The notes beneath the pieces were generated by a model. It saw only the letters and a program-made list of their open reading frames with translations. It did no database searches and was not told the origin of the DNA. A program made the position numbers and the translations under genes. Shown piece by piece: positions 11,464-38,047 of a stretch of DNA of 49,094 nucleotides. Positions within the stretch are counted from its first letter, which is position 1; each line of letters begins with the position of its first letter. Origin of the DNA: Thermoplasmata archaeon (GTDB lineage: Archaea; Thermoplasmatota; Thermoplasmata; Lutacidiplasmatales; UBA184); the NCBI GenBank assembly GCA_049800095.1, contig JBARJD010000139.1, positions 1 through 49,094 on the forward strand, given 5' to 3'.

Positions 11464-12891
11464 ATGGCCGAGCTTCCGGACAAGGCCGAGCACTTCATCG
11501 ATTGGTACCTCGAGGCCGTCGAAGTCGCCGGGCTGACCGACAAACGGTACCCCGTGAAAGGGATGAACGTCTGGACGCCGTATGGCTTCCAGGCCCGTCG
11601 CTTCCTGGATGGGCTGATGATCCGCGGAATCGAGGCGACCGGGTCCCGGGCCGTGGAGTTTCCGACCCTGATCCCTCAGACCGAGTTCCAGAAAGAGAAG
11701 GAACATGTCAAGGGCTTCGACGCGCAGGTGTACTGGGTCACCAAGGGCGGCGCCACCGAGCTCGACATTCCCCTCGTGCTCCGGCCAACGAGCGAAACCG
11801 CGATGTACCCCATCTTCGCGCTGTGGATCCGGTCCCACAAGGACCTGCCGCTCAACGTCTACCAGATCGTGAACACGTTCCGCTACGAGACCAAGACCAC
11901 GCGCCCGTTCCTGCGAATCCGGGAGATCCACTTCTTCGAGGAACACACCTGCCAGCTCACCGACGAAGCAGCCGCCGCACGTTGCCAGTCGAATCTCACC
12001 ACGTTCCAGGGCATCGCGGATGCCCTCGCGCTACCGTTCGTTGCCAGCCGGCGGCCGGAGTGGGACAAGTTCCCGGGCGCGTACTATTCGATCGCGCTCG
12101 ACCTTCCGGTCGGCGGGGCGCATACGCTCCAAGTCGGCACCATTCATCACTATCGCGAAAACTTTTCGCGCCCCTACGAGATCCGATACGAGGATCTTTC
12201 GGGGGAGTTGAAGTTCGTCAACCAGACGACGTTCGGCCTCTCGGAACGCCTCCTCGGTGCGACGGTCGCCTTCCACGGAGACCGACACGGGGTCGTTTTC
12301 CCCTCCTCGATCGCACCCTATCAGGTCGTGATCGTTCCGATCGTGTCGCAAAACAGCGGACCGATCGCGGTGGACGCCGCTCGAACGCTGGCCGGCCGAT
12401 TGGAGTCGCGCGGTCTGCGCGTCCACGTCGACGATTCGGAGGATCGCCCCGGCGCGAAGTACTACCTTTGGGAGTCCCGTGGTGTTCCGTTACGGGTCGA
12501 GATCGGGCCCCGCGAGGCGGCGGCCGGGACCGTGACCGTGGTCAACCGGTTGGGGGAGAAGAAGAGCCTCGGGCCGGGACCGCTCGACGAGCCGATCCTC
12601 CTCGCATTAGCCGACTTCGACCGGGCCTTAGCGGCGCGGGCGCACTCTACGTTCGAAAAGTCGTTCTCAGCGGCGTACCGCCTAGAGGAACTCAAGAATT
12701 CAACCACCGTCCGAATCGTCTCCTGGTGCGGGACTGAGGAATGTGGTCACCAGATCGAACAGGCCATCGAGGGCGCCGTCTTGGGCGTGCCGGAAGGGCC
12801 GCTGCCGATCGACCCCGGCGCACCGGCCGAGTGTATCGCCTGCGGGAAGACGCAGGGGACCCGATGGGCCCTCGCCGGGCGCCCGCTCTAG
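11464..12891 (+). CDS. proS: Prolyl-tRNA synthetase (archaeal/eukaryal type)
   Basis: 475 aa with class II motifs (FRYE.K.TRPFLR.REI), the HGD.GV anticodon-domain region and a C-terminal zinc-binding domain (SWCG..EC...C..CG). Confidence 0.9.
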   Translation: MAELPDKAEHFIDWYLEAVEVAGLTDKRYPVKGMNVWTPYGFQARRFLDGLMIRGIEATGSRAVEFPTLIPQTEFQKEKEHVKGFDAQVYWVTKGGATELDIPLVLRPTSETAMYPIFALWIRSHKDLPLNVYQIVNTFRYETKTTRPFLRIREIHFFEEHTCQLTDEAAAARCQSNLTTFQGIADALALPFVASRRPEWDKFPGAYYSIALDLPVGGAHTLQVGTIHHYRENFSRPYEIRYEDLSGELKFVNQTTFGLSERLLGATVAFHGDRHGVVFPSSIAPYQVVIVPIVSQNSGPIAVDAARTLAGRLESRGLRVHVDDSEDRPGAKYYLWESRGVPLRVEIGPREAAAGTVTVVNRLGEKKSLGPGPLDEPILLALADFDRALAARAHSTFEKSFSAAYRLEELKNSTTVRIVSWCGTEECGHQIEQAIEGAVLGVPEGPLPIDPGAPAECIACGKTQGTRWALAGRPL

Positions 12892-12909
12892 ACGGGACAG
12901 GGAGCCCCC

Positions 12910-13152
12910 TCAGGCGGGGGGCGGGCTCGCGGAGGGCGGCTCGGGCCAGAAGAGCCACAGCCCGGCGACCCCGAAGAGGAGGAGCGTGATCACGACGGCG
13001 TAGACTCCGTTGTCCACCCAAACCCCGTAGGACAAGCCCCACCAGAGGTAGAACACGACGGCGAGCACGACCAAGGCGCCGAACCCCCAGAGCCCCAGCG
13101 TCTGTACCGTGATCGACTCGGAAGTGTGGGGGGTCGCAGCGGAGGCGGACAC
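12910..13152 (-). CDS. Small hypothetical membrane protein (2 TM)
   Basis: 80 aa with two clear hydrophobic, tryptophan-rich helices. No recognisable family. Confidence 0.35.
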   Translation of the reverse strand: MSASAATPHTSESITVQTLGLWGFGALVVLAVVFYLWWGLSYGVWVDNGVYAVVITLLLFGVAGLWLFWPEPPSASPPPA

Positions 13153-13254
13153 GGAAGCGGCCGTCGACCCCCGGTGCTCCCAATAAGCGTTTGGGGGCCC
13201 CGACCTGGGCGGTCCGCTCGCACACCACGCCGGTGGCCCTTGCGGGACCGACCG

Positions 13255-13260
13255 CTTATA
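13255..13260 (+). promoter_or_regulatory. TATA-like box (CTTATA) upstream of the STAND ATPase gene
   Basis: GCTTATAG starts 40 nt before ATG 13295. Confidence 0.4.
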
Positions 13261-29955: not shown

Positions 29956-30915
29956 ATGACCCTCGAAACACAGGCCGTAAACGGTCTACAGCTTGCCACA
30001 GTACTACTTCTGTCCCCGTTGATTGCCGGGATCGCCGCTCGCGGCAAGGCGTGGACGGAATCTCGTAGAGGCCCCTCAATCCTCCAACCCTACTTCGACC
30101 TGGCCAAGTACCTTCGAAAGGAGACGCTCGTCCCGACCGGCGCCTCGCGCATCTTCATCGTCGCGCCCTTCGTATCGTTTGGAGCCTACTTCCTGATCTC
30201 GATCGTCATACCGATACTCACCCCGTACCCGCTCCCCTTCGCCCCGACCGTCGACTTCCTGGGTGGAGGGCTACTCTTCGGTTTGGCGGGCGTCGTGACC
30301 CTCCTCGCTGCCCTGGATTCTGGAAGTAACTACAGTGCCCTTGGGGCGAGTCGGACGGTGTCGTTCGCCGCCCTCGCGGAACCGACTCTGATCGTCGTAT
30401 TCTTCGCCGTGGCCGTGATCAGCGGTACCAATAGTCCCTACGTCGCGAACAACGTCGTGAGCGCCTCGCTAGTGGCCTACCTCTCACCGACCCATCTTCT
30501 CGCGACGGCGGCCTTCTTCCTTCTGCTGCTCTTCGAGACCGGAAAATTGCCGGTCGAGAGCGCCGGCCTCATGGAGTTCGGCATGCTCGAGGAGGGCCGC
30601 ATCTACGAGCACTCGGGCCGGCTACTCGGACTGTTCCGCTGGAACGGGTGGATGAAACAGTTCCTGCTCTACGCGTTGTTCCTCAACGTGTTTGCTGTCC
30701 CCTGGGGAATGGTGGCGGCCCCGACGCTCGTCGGAGCGGTCTACAACCTTGGGCTCCTCCTCGGGAAGCTTCTCGTTCTCGTAGGGGTCCTCGTGCTCGT
30801 CGAGGCCACCCTCGCTAAGGTCCGCCTGTTCAAGATCCGGGATTTCCTTGCCCTGTCCTTCGCGTTCGCAGTGTTGTCCGTCTTTCTGTTCGCCGTCCTG
30901 GGGGGGGTGCCTTAG
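29956..30915 (+). CDS. Ehr/Hyf-like complex membrane subunit, NuoH/HyfC/HycD family
   Basis: SRRGPSILQPYFDLAKYLRKE, LDSGSNYSALGASR and LPVE....EF.MLEEGRIYEHSG align with HyfC/NuoH signatures. The 319 aa compare with 315 aa in E. coli HyfC. Confidence 0.8.
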   Translation: MTLETQAVNGLQLATVLLLSPLIAGIAARGKAWTESRRGPSILQPYFDLAKYLRKETLVPTGASRIFIVAPFVSFGAYFLISIVIPILTPYPLPFAPTVDFLGGGLLFGLAGVVTLLAALDSGSNYSALGASRTVSFAALAEPTLIVVFFAVAVISGTNSPYVANNVVSASLVAYLSPTHLLATAAFFLLLLFETGKLPVESAGLMEFGMLEEGRIYEHSGRLLGLFRWNGWMKQFLLYALFLNVFAVPWGMVAAPTLVGAVYNLGLLLGKLLVLVGVLVLVEATLAKVRLFKIRDFLALSFAFAVLSVFLFAVLGGVP

Positions 30916-31563
30916 ATGGACCCCACCACCGAGGTCGTCCCATTGCTCGGCGTGGGCATCTTGCTCACGGCGCTCTATCTCCAGTCGGAATCGTTCGTCG
31001 ACCCGCTTGTCTGGGGAGTGGCACTGCAATCCGGGTTGATTGCCCTGCTCCTGGGGTGGCTTGCCTGGGCCGATCATAACGTCGACTTCGCCATCCTCGC
31101 CGTGTTGGCCGTCGGGATCCGGGTCTTCCTAATTCCCTACGTGCTGCGCCGGCAGATCCGCGCCTTCCGTTGGCGGGCGAGAGAGCTGCGCGCTTCGCAG
31201 CGTGTTACCGGCCACGTATTGGCCGCGGTGGCGTTAGCCATCATCGCTTGGTTCGTGTTCCAACAGACCCTCGCGCCGGCGTTCCCCGAGCTCGGAGGAG
31301 CCCTGCCCTTCGTTCTCCTGATCCAGGGGCTCCTGATGCTCGCAACACGGGCGAACACGATCGTGCAGGTGGTCGGCTATCTTGAGGAGGAGAACGCCAT
31401 CGTGTTCGCCGGCGCCCTCTTCGCTCGCGGCTTCCCGCTCTTCATCGAGGTCGTGATCTTCCTAGATGTCCTGGGCGTGGTCCTTGTCGGTGTGATTCTT
31501 TCGATCCAGCGGGACGTGACCGGTACCCCCGAGGAGAAGGTGCTGGAGGAGCTCACCGGATGA
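30916..31563 (+). CDS. Ehr/Hyf-like complex membrane subunit, HyfE family
   Basis: 215 aa, against 216 aa for HyfE. The C-terminal half IVQVVGYLEEENAIVFAGAL...FIEVVIFLDVLGVV matches the HyfE pattern GY.L.EN...L.L......IG...D. Confidence 0.7.
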   Translation: MDPTTEVVPLLGVGILLTALYLQSESFVDPLVWGVALQSGLIALLLGWLAWADHNVDFAILAVLAVGIRVFLIPYVLRRQIRAFRWRARELRASQRVTGHVLAAVALAIIAWFVFQQTLAPAFPELGGALPFVLLIQGLLMLATRANTIVQVVGYLEEENAIVFAGALFARGFPLFIEVVIFLDVLGVVLVGVILSIQRDVTGTPEEKVLEELTG

Positions 31564-32996
31564 TATTCACCGACCCTCGAGTGTGGATCTTCTTCGTCCT
31601 GGCCTCTCCCATGGCCGGGGCAATCCTCGCCCTGGTTCCATATCGCTCCGTGAGCCAGGCCGCGGCCCGCACTGCGTCGGTGGCGACCTTCGTCGCCGCC
31701 ACGGCACTCCTCGTGTTGGAGGCGCGAGGGGAGTGGGGGCCGGTCTTCGGCGTAGACCCGCTGAGCGACGTGTTCCTGTTTACCGTCGCGGCGATCTATG
31801 CCACGTCGGTGTGGTACTCGAGCGGCTATCTCCGATCGGTCAACAGCGCATACCTCTCGCCCCAGATCTACTACGCGTTGATGAGCGCTTTCGCCGTCGC
31901 GATGCTGTTCAGCCTACTGGTTACCGACCTCGGCCTGATGTGGATCGGAATCGAAGCGACGACGGTCGCGAGCGCGTTGCTCATCGTGCTCGAACGGAAA
32001 CCGGCGAGCGTCGAAGCCGCCTGGCGGTACACGCTCATCGCTTCGGCGGGGTTGACGATCGCCCTCTTCGCGCTGCTTCTCCTCTACGAGGCGACCGGCA
32101 CCCTGGACGCCGTCGCCCTCGCGGCGAACCACCCCGTCGCGACCCTCCTGGTACAGATGGCCGTCGCTCTCGCACTCGTAGGGTACGGCACCAAGATCGG
32201 TCTCTTTCCGATGCATACGTGGTTGCCGGACGCGCACTCGGAGGCGCCCTCTCCCGTATCCGCTCTTTTTTCGGGGGTGCTGCTTCCCACGGCGCTGTAC
32301 GCGTTCCTACGCGTCTACCAGGTGCTCCCGAGTCCGGCCCCCGCGGACCTCTCGAATCTCGTCCTCGTGGTTGGTCTGTTGACCGCCCTCGTGGCCGCCT
32401 TCCTGCTTCAGCGACAACGGTCGTTCAAACGACTCCTCGCCTATTCGAGCATGGAGGTCATGGGCCTCGCCATTGTCGGAGTGGCGCTCGGCGGGTACGC
32501 CTTGTACGGGGCCCTCGTTCTCTTGGTGGCGCACGCCTTCGCCAAGTCGGCGGCGTTCTATTGCGCGGGGAACGTGCTGCGGGGGACCGGTACGACACGG
32601 ATCGACTCCGTGCGGGATCTTCGGTCGCGGATGCCCTGGACGAGCGCCGCCTGGGTCCTCGCCGCGCCCGCGGCGACCGGTGCCCCCCCGTTCGGGACCT
32701 TTGTCGGGGAACTTCTCATCGTAGTCGGTGCAGTGGCGGTCGGCGCCGATTGGGTCGCCATCGTTGTCGTCGTGGCAATACTGGTGGCCTTCCTCGGCGT
32801 CAACGCGCAGATTGGCGGCATGGTGTTCGGGAAAGGGGATCGGGCCCCGGGCCCCATCACGCCCGGAGCTGAATCCGGCGTATCGTTCGCGTTCCTCAAC
32901 GTCGCCATGGCACTCGCCATCGGGGTCGTCAGCCTGCCCTATCTCTCCACCGCCATCCGAGCGGCCGCGCTTCTCCTGGGAGGGAGAATACCATGA
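31560..32996 (+). CDS. Ehr/Hyf-like complex antiporter-like subunit (HyfD/HyfF, NuoM/N family)
   Basis: 478 aa and about 14 TM helices. HTWLPDAHSEAPSPVSALFSGVLL is the hallmark of Mrp/NuoLMN-type proton-conducting subunits. Joined to hyfE-like by an ATGA overlap. Confidence 0.8.
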   Translation: MIFTDPRVWIFFVLASPMAGAILALVPYRSVSQAAARTASVATFVAATALLVLEARGEWGPVFGVDPLSDVFLFTVAAIYATSVWYSSGYLRSVNSAYLSPQIYYALMSAFAVAMLFSLLVTDLGLMWIGIEATTVASALLIVLERKPASVEAAWRYTLIASAGLTIALFALLLLYEATGTLDAVALAANHPVATLLVQMAVALALVGYGTKIGLFPMHTWLPDAHSEAPSPVSALFSGVLLPTALYAFLRVYQVLPSPAPADLSNLVLVVGLLTALVAAFLLQRQRSFKRLLAYSSMEVMGLAIVGVALGGYALYGALVLLVAHAFAKSAAFYCAGNVLRGTGTTRIDSVRDLRSRMPWTSAAWVLAAPAATGAPPFGTFVGELLIVVGAVAVGADWVAIVVVVAILVAFLGVNAQIGGMVFGKGDRAPGPITPGAESGVSFAFLNVAMALAIGVVSLPYLSTAIRAAALLLGGRIP

Positions 32997-34309
32997 CGGC
33001 GCTCGCCGCCGTGGGGACTACCGGGGAAAGCGGTGCGGGAATCCGCCTCCCGGCATACGCCGCCCCGGACGGCTCGTTCGTTCTCTGGAATGACTTGACG
33101 ACCGGGCGCTCTCGCCTCGTGGGATCGGCCTCGGAGCCGTTCCCTCCCGACTTGACGGCGGCTTGGGCGGTCCCGCGGGACGGCCCGAGACGCCGCTCCG
33201 TGGCTCCGGCCGAGGAGGTGGATGGGTACGGAGTGTTCACCTTCCCGTACGGCCCCATCACGATGGGGGTCGCGGAGTCGGGTCGGTTCGACGTTCGTAC
33301 TTACGGTGAACGCATCCTAGACGTAGCTCCGGTCGCCGGGTACAAGTCTCGACGCATCCTTCCCTCCTTGATCGGCCTATCGGTGGAAGATGCGGCGCTC
33401 CGCGTGGAGCGCGTGTCGGGCAACTTTTCAGCCGCGCACACCGCGGCGTTCCTCGCGGCGGCCGAAAGTGCGATCGCTCGTCCCATTGACGTAGAAGAAG
33501 CCTGGGTTCGGGCCGTCGCCCAGGAACTGCAACGGATCTACAACCACGTGCATGTGATCGCTCGGGTCGCCGAGGCCGCTTCTCAGAACGTCGGCCTCGC
33601 CCAGGCCCACGCCTTCGCGGAGGAGGTCCTGCGGCAGATCGGAGCGACCTTCGGCCATCGATGGCTCTTCGGAGCGTTCCTCCCCGGCGGACCCCGCGCG
33701 CATCTCGACACGGACGATCGCGCGCGTCTTGCCCGAACTCTCGACCGGAAGTCCATGGAGTTCGAGCAGCTTTGGACCTTGTTCCAGGATTCTCGGACGT
33801 TCGTTGACCGGATTCAGACGACGTGTCCCGTATCTCGCGACCAAGCCGTTCACTGGGGCGGCGTGGGTCCCACCCTCCGCGCCACCGGGGTACCGTGGGA
33901 CGACCGACTCCGGGCGCCGGTCGTGCCCTACACGGACCTCTTCCTCCCGCTCGCGACGGAGTCCGAAGGCGATGCGCTCGCCCGCGTGCTCGTCCGTGCC
34001 CAGGAAGTCCGGAGCAGCTACCTCCTGCTGGAGCAGCTCCTCGAGCGTTGGCCAAAATCCCCCGTCGATCCCGTTCCGCCGGCCGCGACCGTCGGCCCGA
34101 ATCGGGGTCTCGGTCGGGTCGAGGGTCCCAGTGGGGACATCGTCTACGACGTCTCGGTCGTAGCGGGTCGCGTCACGGCCGTCGGTCTCCGTAGCGCGAG
34201 TGACGCCAATTGGCCCCTGTTCGCTATCGGGATGCGGGACCAGGTCTTCACGGATTTCCACTTCGCGTGGGAGAGCTTCGGCCTCCAATTCGCCGAAACG
34301 GATCGGTGA
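32993..34309 (+). CDS. NiFe-hydrogenase large subunit / NuoD homologue lacking all metal-ligating cysteines
   Basis: It aligns to HycE/NuoD: GP.T.G..E.G.F...Y.GE.IL, GYKSR, ERVSGNFSAAH and a C-terminal FAETDR. The four NiFe cysteine positions are Ser, Phe, Gln and Glu. ATGA overlap upstream and GTGA overlap downstream. Confidence 0.8.
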   Translation: MTALAAVGTTGESGAGIRLPAYAAPDGSFVLWNDLTTGRSRLVGSASEPFPPDLTAAWAVPRDGPRRRSVAPAEEVDGYGVFTFPYGPITMGVAESGRFDVRTYGERILDVAPVAGYKSRRILPSLIGLSVEDAALRVERVSGNFSAAHTAAFLAAAESAIARPIDVEEAWVRAVAQELQRIYNHVHVIARVAEAASQNVGLAQAHAFAEEVLRQIGATFGHRWLFGAFLPGGPRAHLDTDDRARLARTLDRKSMEFEQLWTLFQDSRTFVDRIQTTCPVSRDQAVHWGGVGPTLRATGVPWDDRLRAPVVPYTDLFLPLATESEGDALARVLVRAQEVRSSYLLLEQLLERWPKSPVDPVPPAATVGPNRGLGRVEGPSGDIVYDVSVVAGRVTAVGLRSASDANWPLFAIGMRDQVFTDFHFAWESFGLQFAETDR

Positions 34310-35061
34310 AGCACGTGCCGAGCTGGTTGGAACAGTCATGGAAACGGGGCATTCTGACCACCCGTTATCCTCGAATCGCCGCTCAGCCTGGCGAGATTCC
34401 TGACACTGCCTTGCCGCCGATCCCGAACGGCCCCGCGGTCGCACTGGCGACGTCGACTTCCAGCTGCCCGACCGGCGCGATTACGCGCAACGCCGTCGAT
34501 CAAGGAAAGTGTATCCGGTGCGCCCGCTGCCGCGCGCAGGGCTTCGCTTTCGCCGGCCCGCTGGAATCCAGCGTCGCCCGACGCCCGGATCTAGTCTGGC
34601 TCGAAGGAACACCCCATCCGACGGAGGAGGCCGGTTCGCTGGTCGCGCTCGGGCGCTCCGTGCACGTGTTCCTCGTCGACGTCGGGAGTTGCAATGCGTG
34701 TAATCTAGAGGTCCTCGCACTGGCGAACCCGTACTACGATTCGCAACGACTCGGCATCTTCTTCACCAACTCTCCACGCCATGCGGACGTCCTGCTGGTC
34801 GTCGGGGTTCCTACCGCGGAGATGGTGGAGCCGATGCAGCGCGCCTACGCCGCCTTGCCCTCTCCCAAGGCGGTGGTGGCCGTAGGGGTCTGCCCCACGA
34901 GCGGGGGGATCTTCGCGGGGAACCCCGGTCTTCGTTCGTCCCTCGACGAGCTCGTGCCGGTCGACCGGTACGTGCCCGGCTGTCCACCGCACCCCTTGGC
35001 CGTGCTCGATGCCATTCTAACGCTGATGGGACGACATCGGCCGTCCGCAGGAGGTCGCTGA
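34306..35061 (+). CDS. NuoB/HycG-type small subunit fused to an N-terminal single-cluster ferredoxin-like remnant
   Basis: The NuoB/HycG core is DVGSCNACNLE, SPRHADVLLVVG, GVCPTSGG and VPGCPPHP. About 100 aa precede it, containing CPTGAI and CIRCARC. The start is inferred at GTG 34306, overlapping the upstream stop. Confidence 0.75.
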   Translation: MKHVPSWLEQSWKRGILTTRYPRIAAQPGEIPDTALPPIPNGPAVALATSTSSCPTGAITRNAVDQGKCIRCARCRAQGFAFAGPLESSVARRPDLVWLEGTPHPTEEAGSLVALGRSVHVFLVDVGSCNACNLEVLALANPYYDSQRLGIFFTNSPRHADVLLVVGVPTAEMVEPMQRAYAALPSPKAVVAVGVCPTSGGIFAGNPGLRSSLDELVPVDRYVPGCPPHPLAVLDAILTLMGRHRPSAGGR

Positions 35062-35062
35062 G

Positions 35063-37066
35063 ATGGACCCCTTCGGCCTCGTACTCACGTTCGCGATCGC
35101 GTCGTTCTTCGCCGGAGCCGCGCTCGCGTTCCTGGGCCGGCGTGTGGCGTATGCGGCCACGATCGTGGGCGCGACGGGCCTGGTCGTGGTTGCGGTCCGC
35201 GTGATCCTGCTCGGGCCGGTACAGGGTCCGATGTGGACCGGCCCGCTCGGCGAAATGGAATCGTTCGGCCTCGACGGCCTGTCGGCATTCTTCGCGCTGG
35301 CCGCGGGACTCGTCTGGATTTCGACATCGGTCTACTCCCTCTACTACGACGACGGTCCGTCGCCGCTGCTCGCCCTCACCTACGCGGTAACGCTCGGATC
35401 GATCGCCGTGCTGGTGTCGGCGTCGAGCTTCCTACTCTTCCTGATGGGGTGGGAATCGATGACGCTGGCCTCCTTCGGAATGATACTCCAAGCGTCGGGG
35501 AAATCTCCTCGGATCTTCTCGGCCGCGTTCGTCTTCCTTGCCTTCGGCGAGGCGAGCACTCTCTTCGTATTCCTGGCCGTGGCCGGGTACCGGGTTGCGG
35601 CCGGTACCTTCACGATCATGCCCGTCGCAATGGCCGCCCCGCTCGCCACCCTTGTGTTCGTCGTGGGCCTCATCGGGTTCGGTCTCAAGATGGGCGTGGC
35701 CCCGTTCCACATGAGCGAATGGCTTCCGATCGCTCACTCATCGGCGCCTTCGAATGCATCCGCGGTGCTGAGCTCCACGCTGACGTTGGCCGGAGCCTAC
35801 GGCCTCTTCCGCCTCTTGAGCATCCTACCGACGCCGCCGGTCTGGTGGGGGGCGGTCACGCTCTCGATCGGTGCCGTCTCGGCCCTGCTCGGAGCCCTCT
35901 TCGCCTCGGTGAGCGAGCACACGAAAGGGCTCCCGGCGTACAGCACCATCGAAAACAACGGACTCATCCTGGTCGCGGTGGGCGTCGCGCTGGTGGCCCG
36001 GTCCGAGGGACTGATGACCCTCTACGTCTTCGCGCTGTTCGCGGCCTTCTATCAGGCCCTCGCGCATGCGGTGGCCAAGACCGCGCTGTTCCTCAGCGCG
36101 GGATACGTCGAACACTCGACGCACACCTTCGACCTGAACGTGGTCCAGGGACGCGCGAAGAACGCCGCTCGAGGCGCCGTGGCCGGAGCCCTCATCGCCC
36201 CGCTCAGCCTCGCGGCGGCGCCCCCCCTGGCGGGCTTTGTGAGCGAGTGGATGATCCTCGAGGCGCTCTTCCAGTCGTTCCGGTTCACTCCCCCCGCCAT
36301 GCAGTTCGTCGGCTTGCTCGCCGGTGCTGCCGTCGCGCTGGCGGCGGGCCTTGTCCTCGTGGCGATGGTGAAGTACATCGGATTCTCGACCCTGTGGCAG
36401 CCCTCCCGGCCCGGCGCGGCCGACCGACCCGCCGGATTGGGTACCGTCCTCGCGGCGATGGCCGTCGCCATCGCCGGACTGGGAGTCGGCGCGCCGTGGG
36501 TGCTCCGGTTCCTCACTCCCTCGGTGTCGGCGTTCGCCCATGTCGCCGTCACCGCTCCCGTGTCCGGGCTCCTCTCCATCCCGTTCGGCTGGTCGATCGT
36601 CTCGGGCTCGCCGTTCGGGATCCTGTCCCCACCGGCCGTTCCAATCTTCATTGGGGGGGGACTCCTCGTCGCGCTGGGGTACTACGCGCTCGGGGTCCGG
36701 ACACCGGTGCGTCGGATTGCGTCCTGGATGGCCGGGAGTCCGCCCGGCCGAGTTGAGGAGACGTACACGTCGTTCGGTTACAGCACAGGAGTCCGGATCA
36801 TGTTCCGGTCGATCCTGCGCACGCGGGAAGTGCGGGCCCACTCCGGTACATTCACTCGTGCGGCGATGGAGACGCCGGTCGCGTACAACGTCGAACTCGA
36901 GGTACTCGACCCGTTCAAGATCTTTTACGACGAACTGGTCCGGTTCGGAATGGGAGTCTCCACCGCTCTCAAGGAGGGAGTCATGCCGGGTCGCGTGGGG
37001 CGGTATCTCGCGTATCTCCTGGTCGCGACACTCGTCGTCGTCATCTACGTCGCGATCGCGGTCTGA
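35063..37066 (+). CDS. Ehr/Hyf-like complex antiporter-like subunit (HyfB/NuoL family)
   Basis: 667 aa, against 672 aa for HyfB. It is polytopic, contains PFHMSEWLPIAHSSAPSNASAVLS, and has a C-terminal extension typical of the L-type subunit. Confidence 0.8.
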   Translation: MDPFGLVLTFAIASFFAGAALAFLGRRVAYAATIVGATGLVVVAVRVILLGPVQGPMWTGPLGEMESFGLDGLSAFFALAAGLVWISTSVYSLYYDDGPSPLLALTYAVTLGSIAVLVSASSFLLFLMGWESMTLASFGMILQASGKSPRIFSAAFVFLAFGEASTLFVFLAVAGYRVAAGTFTIMPVAMAAPLATLVFVVGLIGFGLKMGVAPFHMSEWLPIAHSSAPSNASAVLSSTLTLAGAYGLFRLLSILPTPPVWWGAVTLSIGAVSALLGALFASVSEHTKGLPAYSTIENNGLILVAVGVALVARSEGLMTLYVFALFAAFYQALAHAVAKTALFLSAGYVEHSTHTFDLNVVQGRAKNAARGAVAGALIAPLSLAAAPPLAGFVSEWMILEALFQSFRFTPPAMQFVGLLAGAAVALAAGLVLVAMVKYIGFSTLWQPSRPGAADRPAGLGTVLAAMAVAIAGLGVGAPWVLRFLTPSVSAFAHVAVTAPVSGLLSIPFGWSIVSGSPFGILSPPAVPIFIGGGLLVALGYYALGVRTPVRRIASWMAGSPPGRVEETYTSFGYSTGVRIMFRSILRTREVRAHSGTFTRAAMETPVAYNVELEVLDPFKIFYDELVRFGMGVSTALKEGVMPGRVGRYLAYLLVATLVVVIYVAIAV

Positions 37067-37103: not shown

Positions 37104-37568
37104 TCAGGGGACGACCGTCACCGGCCGCCCGGACCGGTCGAGGAGGGCGGCGGAGACGGAGCCGAGGAGGGTCCTGGCCGCGCCCCGGAGTCCCCGGGTG
37201 CCGACCACAATCCAGTCCGCCTTGATCTCGTCCGCGGCCGCGAGCAGCACCGTGATAGGAGACCCCCCTCGGCTCCACGCGGTGAGGGTGACCCCCTCCC
37301 GCGTCGCTTCTTCTTGCAGGTCACGGAGGACCTCACCGATCGCGTCCACCTCGGAGGCCTGCTCCTCATCGGTACGGGGTTCCATCACCAACGCAGGAGG
37401 CTGGGCGGCGTGCACCAGCCAGATCGCGGCGCCCCCCCGACGGGCGATTCCGAGAGCGAACTGCACCGCTCGGTACGACGCGTCCGATCCGTCGTATCCC
37501 ACGAGCATCCGGAGGGCCGGTGGGGGCCTCGAATTGGCATGGATCGGAGTGCGCGAGGGGGTGTTCAT
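37104..37568 (-). CDS. Universal stress protein (UspA family)
   Basis: The sequence runs MLVGYDGSDASYRAV.FA...A......L.HA, with the C-terminal ATP-binding pattern VVGTRGLRGAARTLLGSVS. Confidence 0.8.
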   Translation of the reverse strand: MNTPSRTPIHANSRPPPALRMLVGYDGSDASYRAVQFALGIARRGGAAIWLVHAAQPPALVMEPRTDEEQASEVDAIGEVLRDLQEEATREGVTLTAWSRGGSPITVLLAAADEIKADWIVVGTRGLRGAARTLLGSVSAALLDRSGRPVTVVP

Positions 37569-38047
37569 GGCCGACCCTCGTTGGGACGTCGCGGAAGGTA
37601 GCGATCTCCGGCGTTCTCAGTGTCCGCGTCCCCACGGGGAGGGTCCCCGTGCCCGGAGGCCCGTATCATCCCTTCGAGGGCCCGGACCCGCCGAGAAAGC
37701 AACGCGTTGTCCGCGTAGTACTCGTAAGCTTGGAAATTCAGGCGCGCCCGATCCTGAGCGCAAGCAGTGAGGGACTTCGCCAGCTGCTCGAGTCGGCTCC
37801 CCGTCGATACCCCGAGGCCGGCCTCCGGGCTGGAGGCTACGCGCGGGGGTGGGGGAGGAAGGAGCGGGAGCATCGTGAGAAGCCAAACCCACAGCCCCCT
37901 CAATCCCACTTCGTCCAGGTCGAGCCAAGGTCGAATGGCGGCGCGAAGCTCCGGCGGGGGTTCGACGTAGTCGTTCCGGATCCGTTCTGCGCCGCCCGGA
38001 CGTCGGCGGTCGCTCTTCTGGGTGGCCGCTTCCAATTCCCTGGGCAT
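37565..38047 (-). CDS. Hypothetical protein (one hydrophobic segment, proline run, helical C-terminus)
   Basis: 160 aa. Its stop overlaps the usp start (ATGA on the minus strand). No family was recognised. Confidence 0.35.
   Translation of the reverse strand: MPRELEAATQKSDRRRPGGAERIRNDYVEPPPELRAAIRPWLDLDEVGLRGLWVWLLTMLPLLPPPPPRVASSPEAGLGVSTGSRLEQLAKSLTACAQDRARLNFQAYEYYADNALLSRRVRALEGMIRASGHGDPPRGDADTENAGDRYLPRRPNEGRP

Follow-up and report, generated by a model that had tools for sequence, protein, structure and literature searches.

Why should the small subunit of a hydrogenase-like complex begin with what appears to be half of a ferredoxin subunit, with cysteines for one cluster instead of two? 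This question is raised by a gene that ends at position 35061 of a 49,094-nucleotide stretch of DNA, referred to below as the window, which comprises positions 1 to 49,094 of the forward strand of contig JBARJD010000139.1 (GenBank assembly GCA_049800095.1) from a Thermoplasmata archaeon (GTDB lineage Lutacidiplasmatales; UBA184). The gene product joins half of a HycF-type subunit to a HycG-type small subunit within a six-subunit Ehr-type complex of this GC-rich soil archaeon, and probably retains a two-cluster electron wire that runs from a medial to a proximal cluster and ends at a metal-free pocket in the large subunit. Ehr complexes are relatives of the group 4 hydrogenases that lack the NiFe ligands and whose role is unknown (PMC6349859; PMC4758237).

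The open reading frame (ORF) on the + strand extends from 34210 to 35061, and the gene for the fused small subunit (HycF-N::HycG) occupies 34306 or 34315 to 35061 within it, depending on the start codon. Translation from GTG 34306, which overlaps (GTGA) with the stop codon that ends the large-subunit gene, provides a protein of 251 residues with eight cysteines in total, at positions 54, 69, 72, 75, 129, 132, 196, and 226. The motifs CPTGAI, CIRCARC, GSCNAC, GVCPTSGG, and PGCPP are all found exactly as they had been read in the first-pass annotation, which was made from the letters of the window alone. Four of the cysteines lie in the N-terminal ~105 residues, where a Cys-Pro pair is followed after 13 residues by CxxCxxC, and the other four lie in a HycG/MbhJ-type domain. 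The cysteine set and the motifs of that annotation stand, but the start codon GTG 34306 that it assumed may not. Translation may begin instead at GTG 34315, which is favored because it is the start recorded by the gene callers (248 residues, P0002), because most homologues open with MPSW or MASW, in line with this start, and because a possible Shine-Dalgarno element, GGTGA, can be read at 34305–34309, 5 nucleotides upstream. Residue numbers would then drop by 3, and the numbering of the 248-residue form is used below.

Since no in-frame ATG, GTG, or TTG is present between 34327 and approximately 34660, every plausible start includes the N-terminal domain. There is next to no chance that the extension is an annotation artefact and that translation begins downstream to yield a plain small subunit. 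The next GTG codons are found about 10 residues before C126, where the alignment with MbhJ and HycG, which starts at residue 109–115, has already begun, and the overlap of the start with the upstream stop is what coupled translation predicts. Protein-level conservation of the N-terminal part extends over more than 150 sequences. Residues W4, G12, P19, E27, C51, P52, A55, C66, R68, C69, R71, and C72 are invariant in an alignment of 84 sequences, which demonstrates purifying selection on this part of the protein. The outcome that the first-pass annotation had named as fatal to its proposal, an untranslated N-terminal segment of 100 residues, is thus not what was found: this segment is under selection as protein and no start codon skips it.

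The identity of the N-terminal domain was established with a family profile and a separate structural model. Single-sequence searches of Pfam and NCBIfam yielded sub-threshold, generic Fer4 and FdxA matches only and could not name the domain. The Pfam Fer4 score of the N-terminal piece alone was 19.2 bits against a cut-off of 21.1, as expected when half of a motif pair is left. The full-length model was likewise unsuitable for finding the N-terminal fold with Foldseek, which returned small-subunit chains only, as the larger domain dominates. A profile built from 36 N-terminal domains (A1) has E. coli HycF (7z0s_F) as its best match in the PDB, with residues 1–93 aligned to 1–106 (E = 0.0018), and weaker matches to NdhI, NuoI, and TYKY chains. 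Alignment with hhalign to the HycF-like protein of a Thermococcus gene cluster of the formate hydrogenlyase (FHL) type provided a probability of 95.4% (E = 1.7e-8). The AlphaFold model of the N-terminal domain alone has a predicted local distance difference test score (pLDDT) of 79.5, and the first 45 of its 48 Foldseek matches are NuoI, TYKY, NdhI, Nqo9, or HycF chains, with query-normalized template modeling (TM) scores of 0.50–0.54; the best of these are 7p63_I (E = 1.3e-3) and 7z0s_F (TM 0.54). The N-terminal part is the core of a HycF/NuoI subunit specifically, rather than a generic ferredoxin. The profile, hhalign, and Foldseek results support the proposal of the first-pass annotation that a HyfH/NuoI subunit was pared down to one cluster and fused to the small subunit, and the lack of ferredoxin-fold similarity that would have spoken against it was not encountered.

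The layout of this domain can be followed along the gene. A short helix, WLEQSWKR (residues 4–11; 34324–34347), appears in the AlphaFold secondary structure and is followed by a long loop with the conserved segment RGILTTRYP; the alignment with HycF begins at residue 1. [quoted passage not shown] Residues 38–50 (34426–34464) are the remnant of ferredoxin motif I, where the alignments place the CxxCxxC of the distal cluster; the remnant is free of cysteine and hypervariable across the homologues. The kept Cys-Pro (C51-P52 in CPTGAI; 34465–34482) is aligned to the Cys-Pro of HycF motif I and is invariant in 120 of 120 homologues. The kept CxxCxxC (C66-I-R-C69-A-R-C72; 34510–34530) is aligned to that of motif II, and the Cys-Pro that would come next is replaced by G-F/L. 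The lost ligand positions in the window read A, L, and S at the first CxxCxxC and a gap at the second Cys-Pro (G-F after CIRCARC). The remainder of the HycF/NuoI core, with a GPxE...RxDL segment, and a variable Pro/Ala-rich linker occupy 34543–34650 in the alignments, and a lower pLDDT is seen at residues 101–110. The two complete CxxCxxCxxxCP motifs of HycF, HyfH, and NuoI (eight cysteines, two clusters) are not present, nor is the ferredoxin part a separate polypeptide: in the window and in all homologues it shares one ORF with the small-subunit domain.

In ferredoxins with two [4Fe-4S] clusters, the Cys-Pro of one motif completes the cluster that is held by the CxxCxxC of the other motif. 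The surviving Cys-Pro comes from motif I and the surviving CxxCxxC from motif II, and by this topology the four cysteines therefore constitute one complete [4Fe-4S] ligand set; the alignments with HycF bear out the first-pass annotation in precisely this combination. The same four cysteines might instead bind a [3Fe-4S] or [2Fe-2S] cluster or a single metal ion, and E. coli HycF does possess an unexpected single-metal cysteine quartet elsewhere in the protein, in its C-terminal extension (PMC9474812). That extension is absent from the fused protein, however, and a [3Fe-4S] cluster would need three cysteines only. The Cys-Pro...CxxCxxC spacing and the predicted fold both match the canonical NuoI/HycF [4Fe-4S] site, and a non-cubane center is very improbable.

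The C-terminal half is a HycG/MbhJ/NuoB-type domain (34651–35043) whose proximal-cluster cysteines are C126 and C129 (34690–34701), C193 (34891–34893), and C223 (34981–34983). Of the two kinds of profile that the first-pass annotation had suggested for a domain scan, Fer4 remained below its cut-off, as described above, and Oxidored_q6 (PF01058) matched residues 129–239 with E = 1.6e-26 (92.9 bits versus a cut-off of 27). The best PDB matches are MbhJ (6cfw_J, E = 3.8e-37) and HycG (7z0s_G, E = 7.4e-32). The full-length AlphaFold model has a pLDDT of 90.2 and a predicted TM score of 0.89, and it retrieves HycG, MbhJ, PSST, and NuoB chains in Foldseek with a probability of 1.00. The cysteines have the hydrogenase-type CxxC...C...C arrangement rather than the CC motif of complex I, and all four are invariant in the 84-sequence alignment, in agreement with the initial description of a normal NuoB/HycG-type module with four cluster ligands.

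For comparison of homologues, the number of cysteines in the ferredoxin part and the number of proximal cysteines in the small-subunit part are combined as 8+4, 4+4, or 4+0. The same 4+4 cysteines with the same spacing are found in 120 of the 120 best homologues, which are 55–76% identical to the window protein and 236–253 residues long. Judged from these sequences, the 4+4 pattern is far beyond what chance would be expected to leave.

The fused gene is the fifth of six genes on the + strand that form a translationally coupled operon, directly after the gene for the large subunit. The operon encodes a HycD/NuoH-like membrane subunit of 319 residues (29956–30915; PF00146), a HyfE-like membrane subunit of 215 residues (30916–31563; NF008556, E = 5e-10), a HyfF-like antiporter-type subunit of 478 residues (31560–32996; Pfam and NCBIfam), a large subunit of 438 residues (32993–34309; Pfam, MbhL alignment, and the survey of loci below), the fused small subunit, and a HyfB-like antiporter-type subunit of 667 residues (35063–37066; Pfam and NCBIfam). 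By these Pfam and NCBIfam assignments the operon is a group-4-hydrogenase-like set with antiporter-like and HycD/NuoH-like membrane subunits, as in Ehr complexes. Beyond it, the segment at 37104–38047 on the minus strand, convergent on the operon end, gave no Pfam match in the + frames that were scanned. At a homologous locus (L001) a Usp-family gene is found at the same position after the HyfB-like gene (12786–13259), so that a Usp neighbor is shared by at least two genomes.

The large subunit lacks the NiFe ligands. The closest solved relative is MbhL (E = 2.1e-23), and where MbhL has ERMCGICSFSH, the RxCGxCxxxH site, the window protein reads ERVSGNFSAAH. The alignment with MbhL places Ser and Phe at the cysteines of this first motif and Thr at the His of the β1–β2 loop. 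There is no cysteine at the C-terminal NiFe motif (DPCxxCxxR/H); both the L1 and L2 metal-binding motifs of group 4 [NiFe]-hydrogenases are absent, and the protein, which ends in ...ESFGLQFAETDR, contains one cysteine overall. The segment GPITMG corresponds to GPIHPG in MbhL, and the complex I-type quinone-site His is absent. In a hand alignment, the window protein has SG where complex I has D-Y, the latter containing the quinone-site Tyr.

A scan of one genome per GTDB species yielded 34 related loci, 33 of which include the upstream gene. All 34 come from metagenome-assembled genomes (MAGs) labeled Thermoplasmata archaeon, and isolate labels such as SMAG and MFD suggest an origin in soil surveys. 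In 33 of 33 loci the NiFe cysteines are missing from the large subunit, so the co-occurrence with the fusion that the first-pass annotation had suggested surveying was found throughout. Most of these large subunits carry R[LIM]AGNFSAxH and all have the ...ESFGxxFAETD end; the pocket motifs GNFSAxH and VFTDFHFAxESFG are strongly conserved. No CxxCxxCxxxCP motif occurs in any frame within ~6 kb of the fused gene in the 33 related loci. In the window, the fused protein is the only Fe-S subunit of the complex. On a 617-kb contig the same six genes are flanked by unrelated genes. No match to HypC or HypD was obtained in the genome of the window (2.07 Mb, 93% complete). Another contig of this genome (C7) carries a separate canonical cluster with a complex-I-type NuoB (CCAIE), NuoD, and NuoI. 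At about 5300–6300 of C7 (locus L005), next to the CCAIE-type NuoB, a NuoI homologue has four complete CxxCxxCxxxCP motifs (16 ligand cysteines, with 24 cysteines in the open frame). This homologue resembles a duplicated ferredoxin subunit that could hold four [4Fe-4S] clusters, and it could be the lengthened input arm, accepting ferredoxin, of a complex that lacks NuoEFG.

The window complex can be compared with four sets of relatives. Coppi is said to have described EhrS of the Geobacter complex in 2005 as a ferredoxin::small-subunit fusion. In the window the HyfB-like gene closes the operon, instead of opening it as in the Geobacter order, and the small subunit is of the 4+4 type. Both systems have HyfB-, HycD-, HyfE-, and HyfF-like subunits together with a small subunit and a large subunit without NiFe cysteines, and both lack an input module (PMC6349859; PMC7894505). 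The Ehr genes of Geobacter sulfurreducens (GSU0739-45, encoding EhrA-D, EhrL, and EhrS) are expressed, and the role of the complex was not investigated (PMC7894505).

The likeness to E. coli FHL and to the membrane-bound hydrogenase (MBH) of Pyrococcus is visible in both halves of the fused protein, for which HycF is the best sequence match and a top-three fold match of the N-terminal domain, and MbhJ (6cfw) and HycG (7z0s) are the best sequence match and the best fold match, respectively, of the C-terminal domain. The N-terminal helix and loop and the CxxC...C...C cluster motif are shared. In FHL, however, HycF and HycG are separate polypeptides that hold three clusters together, two [4Fe-4S] clusters being in HycF (PMC9474812), whereas the window protein is a single polypeptide with two sites. 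The C-terminal cysteine quartet of HycF contacts HycB in FHL, and in the window protein this extension is missing, as is HycB from the operon. The large subunits of FHL and MBH contain the NiFe center and that of the window does not.

The folds of NuoI (TYKY, NdhI) and NuoB (PSST, NdhK) of complex I/NDH-1 are also recognizable, and a layout from a medial (N6b) to a terminal (N2) cluster would follow by inference. Complex I differs in that NuoB has CCxxE and NuoD has the quinone-site His and Tyr, which the small and large subunits of the window lack, and in that NuoI keeps both clusters as a separate subunit, whereas the fusion keeps one set. The fourth set comprises the fused HycF::HycG small subunits of the 8+4 type, from Thermoplasmata resembling Methanomassiliicoccales, and of the 4+0 type, from other lineages, which share the fusion and the type of complex and differ only in the number of cluster sites kept. 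No description of this complex in Thermoplasmata, or of the 8+4/4+4/4+0 series, was found in the literature, including the Lutacidiplasmatales and Angelarchaeales genome papers, and Ehr is unmentioned in a review of complex-I-like machines (PMC8165549).

The simplest origin of the gene is a fusion of adjacent hycF-like and hycG-like genes, as the order in the Thermococcus FHL-type cluster is hycE-hycF-hycG and the fused gene of the window directly follows that of the large subunit. The Thermococcus HycF also contains CIRCARC. How often this fusion occurs, and in which cysteine states, was determined with a family-profile search of 1.84 billion representative proteins, in which the ligand columns of the best 150 were read. 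There were 40 fused 4+4, 23 fused 8+4, and 12 fused 4+0 proteins, the last with Asp, Glu, or Ser in place of the proximal-cluster cysteines, and 68 unfused proteins with four proximal cysteines. In the fused forms the cluster of Cys-Pro(I) and CxxCxxC(II) is almost always the one that is kept. Some fused proteins carry the JGI pipeline name 'Ni,Fe-hydrogenase III small subunit/ferredoxin'. In two clusters (P0130 and P0134) the deposited gene models disagree on the length of one and the same short 4+4 protein, at 197 versus 210 residues and 197 versus 286 residues, respectively. Automatic start calls often cut the HycF-like helix, and database lengths understate the frequency of the fusion.

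Loci L050, L053, and L054, from other families in the class, have the same six-gene set with an 8+4 fusion and a large subunit that reads ERISGDNAVAH without NiFe cysteines; the large subunit was checked at both motifs for L053 and L054 and at the first motif only for L050, where the product ends early. Since 8+4 fusions thus stand beside large subunits without NiFe ligands, the fusion and the loss of NiFe precede the loss of the distal cluster or are independent of it. Fusion and cluster loss are separate events. The ORF of the L050 large subunit (G131:C1, 8168–9487) encodes 439 residues and ends in ...GRIAAQCGNHRQ*, compared with 489–510 residues in its relatives, and a gap of 149 nucleotides separates it from the small-subunit gene; it may have suffered a frameshift or a truncation. 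In other Thermoplasmata the six genes are present with the HyfB-like gene first, not last, and a locus of another family (L052) encodes a short 4+4 form of 209 residues. One 8+4 small subunit is nearly identical to a protein labeled Methanomassiliicoccales at NCBI.

A quick maximum-likelihood tree of representatives at 50% identity, whose deep branches are poorly supported, places the window family in a clade of 16 representatives (Shimodaira-Hasegawa-like approximate likelihood ratio test support of 97), all 16 of which are 4+4. The named members of this clade are Ca. Sysuiplasma acidicola, MAGs labeled Thermoplasmata or Thermoplasmatota, and a MAG labeled Methanopyri archaeon. The well-supported branches alone require at least six changes of the 4+4 label, and the distal cluster was therefore lost repeatedly. 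The 8+4 forms resembling Methanomassiliicoccales were considered as direct ancestors and set aside, as they fall in a different part of the tree; with the deep branches this weak, no claim of ancestry is made. The feature is real and strictly conserved, and the 4+4 form is not a one-off: it is one of several common, lineage-fixed variants of a widespread fused Ehr small subunit.

The window's own family also contains a second, divergent fused small subunit of 324 residues (L051; G023:C11, 8918–9892, minus strand), which is preceded by a large subunit of 615 residues without NiFe cysteines. Motif I of this protein reads CEGSGECVRVCP, which is Cx5CxxxCP with three cysteines instead of four, and may represent an intermediate or [3Fe-4S]-type state of the distal site. 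Members of the close family of the window protein (E < 1e-80) turned up in 18 of the 59 genomes sampled from the archaeal family of the window, and the genomes sampled outside that family yielded none. Within the same genus, one of three other sampled genomes has a close homologue, and two nearly complete genomes are without it. In one genome of the family (G266:C13:4611-5345) an in-frame TAA lies inside the match of a close homologue, which may be a pseudogene or an assembly error and would fit a patchily distributed accessory operon.

From this architecture, homology, conservation, and gene context we infer the occupancy and adjacency of the clusters, the flow of electrons, the donor and acceptor, and the coupling to ion translocation as follows. 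The first ~105 residues would form a HycF/NuoI core composed of an amphipathic helix with a long loop, a ferredoxin fold, and the RxDL strand, with the helix and loop resting on the membrane surface as in the solved relatives. [quoted passage not shown] Its four kept cysteines would bind one [4Fe-4S] cluster, which by analogy with complex I would be of the medial N6b type and adjoin the cluster of the small subunit. The C-terminal ~135 residues would be a hydrogenase-type small subunit with the proximal [4Fe-4S] cluster. By the same analogy a two-cluster wire is most likely kept in the complex, leading from the medial to the proximal cluster and ending at a large-subunit pocket without NiFe ligands or the quinone-site His/Tyr. 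Since neither the distal cluster nor HycB-type partners remain, a soluble donor of low potential, for example ferredoxin, would need to bind to the half-ferredoxin domain itself, and ions would move through the HycD-like and antiporter-like subunits in a manner coupled to electrons reaching the pocket. In NDH-1 electrons are taken straight from ferredoxin without NuoEFG, and the order of the chain is ferredoxin–N6a(distal)–N6b(medial)–N2 (PMC7021789).

Several observations weigh against this proposal. An electron-input subunit, a donor, or an acceptor could not be identified in the operon or its conserved neighborhood, and the large subunit is without every known catalytic or quinone-binding residue. 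The 12 representatives of the 4+0 type persist with a cut wire, and the medial cluster that is kept could thus be mainly structural. The operon is accessory, with an occurrence in 18 of 59 genomes of the family and one of three of the genus. The assignment of the Cys-Pro(I)+CxxCxxC(II) set to the N6b ligands depends on the ligand table reported for Thermus Nqo9 (Sazanov and Hinchliffe 2006).

Some of these points would be accommodated if the clusters were structural or regulatory relics in a redox-independent, or merely redox-gated, Mrp-like transporter of cations or protons, with the half-HycF domain clamping the peripheral subunits to the HycD-like subunit. In favor of a transporter, the operon and its conserved neighborhood encode no input module, and the large subunit has neither the NiFe cysteines nor the complex I His/Tyr. 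The 4+0 relatives, with Asp, Glu, or Ser for the proximal cysteines, still form a conserved clade, and the helix and loop residues W4, G12, Y18, and P19 are conserved like the cysteines. The four proximal and four medial cysteines are, however, invariant over a deep clade, and the conserved pocket motifs GNFSAxH and VFTDFHFAxESFG suggest a working site. Structural and redox-active clusters cannot be told apart by sequence. A transporter of this kind is rather unlikely, and a half-HycF::HycG small subunit with a two-cluster wire to a metal-free pocket is probably the better description. It is unlikely that the complex goes further and is a working minimal redox-driven ion pump, in which electrons would pass directly from a soluble ferredoxin to the exposed medial cluster of the half-HycF domain, the second cluster, and a metal-free, strongly conserved pocket (GNFSAxH / FTDFHFAxESFG) with a chemistry beyond that of hydrogenases, the membrane-bound sulfane reductase (MBS), and complex I. 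If this were true, the 8+4, 4+4, and 4+0 series would trace how redox function was rewired or lost step by step within a large, uncharacterized branch of the complex I superfamily.

Ehr complexes, which are widespread and related to complex I and to the energy-converting hydrogenases, have never had a function established for them. The occurrence of their fused small subunit in discrete, lineage-fixed states with three, two, or one cluster site provides a handle on that function, as the states show which lineages, that of the window included, still have an unbroken route to the pocket of the large subunit and in which this route has been severed. The family of the window is a good candidate for biochemistry on an Ehr complex that may still be redox-active, and it provides a natural experiment on the minimum length of the electron wire in a machine of the complex I type. 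The fusion is chiefly of value as a way into the unsolved question of what Ehr complexes do.

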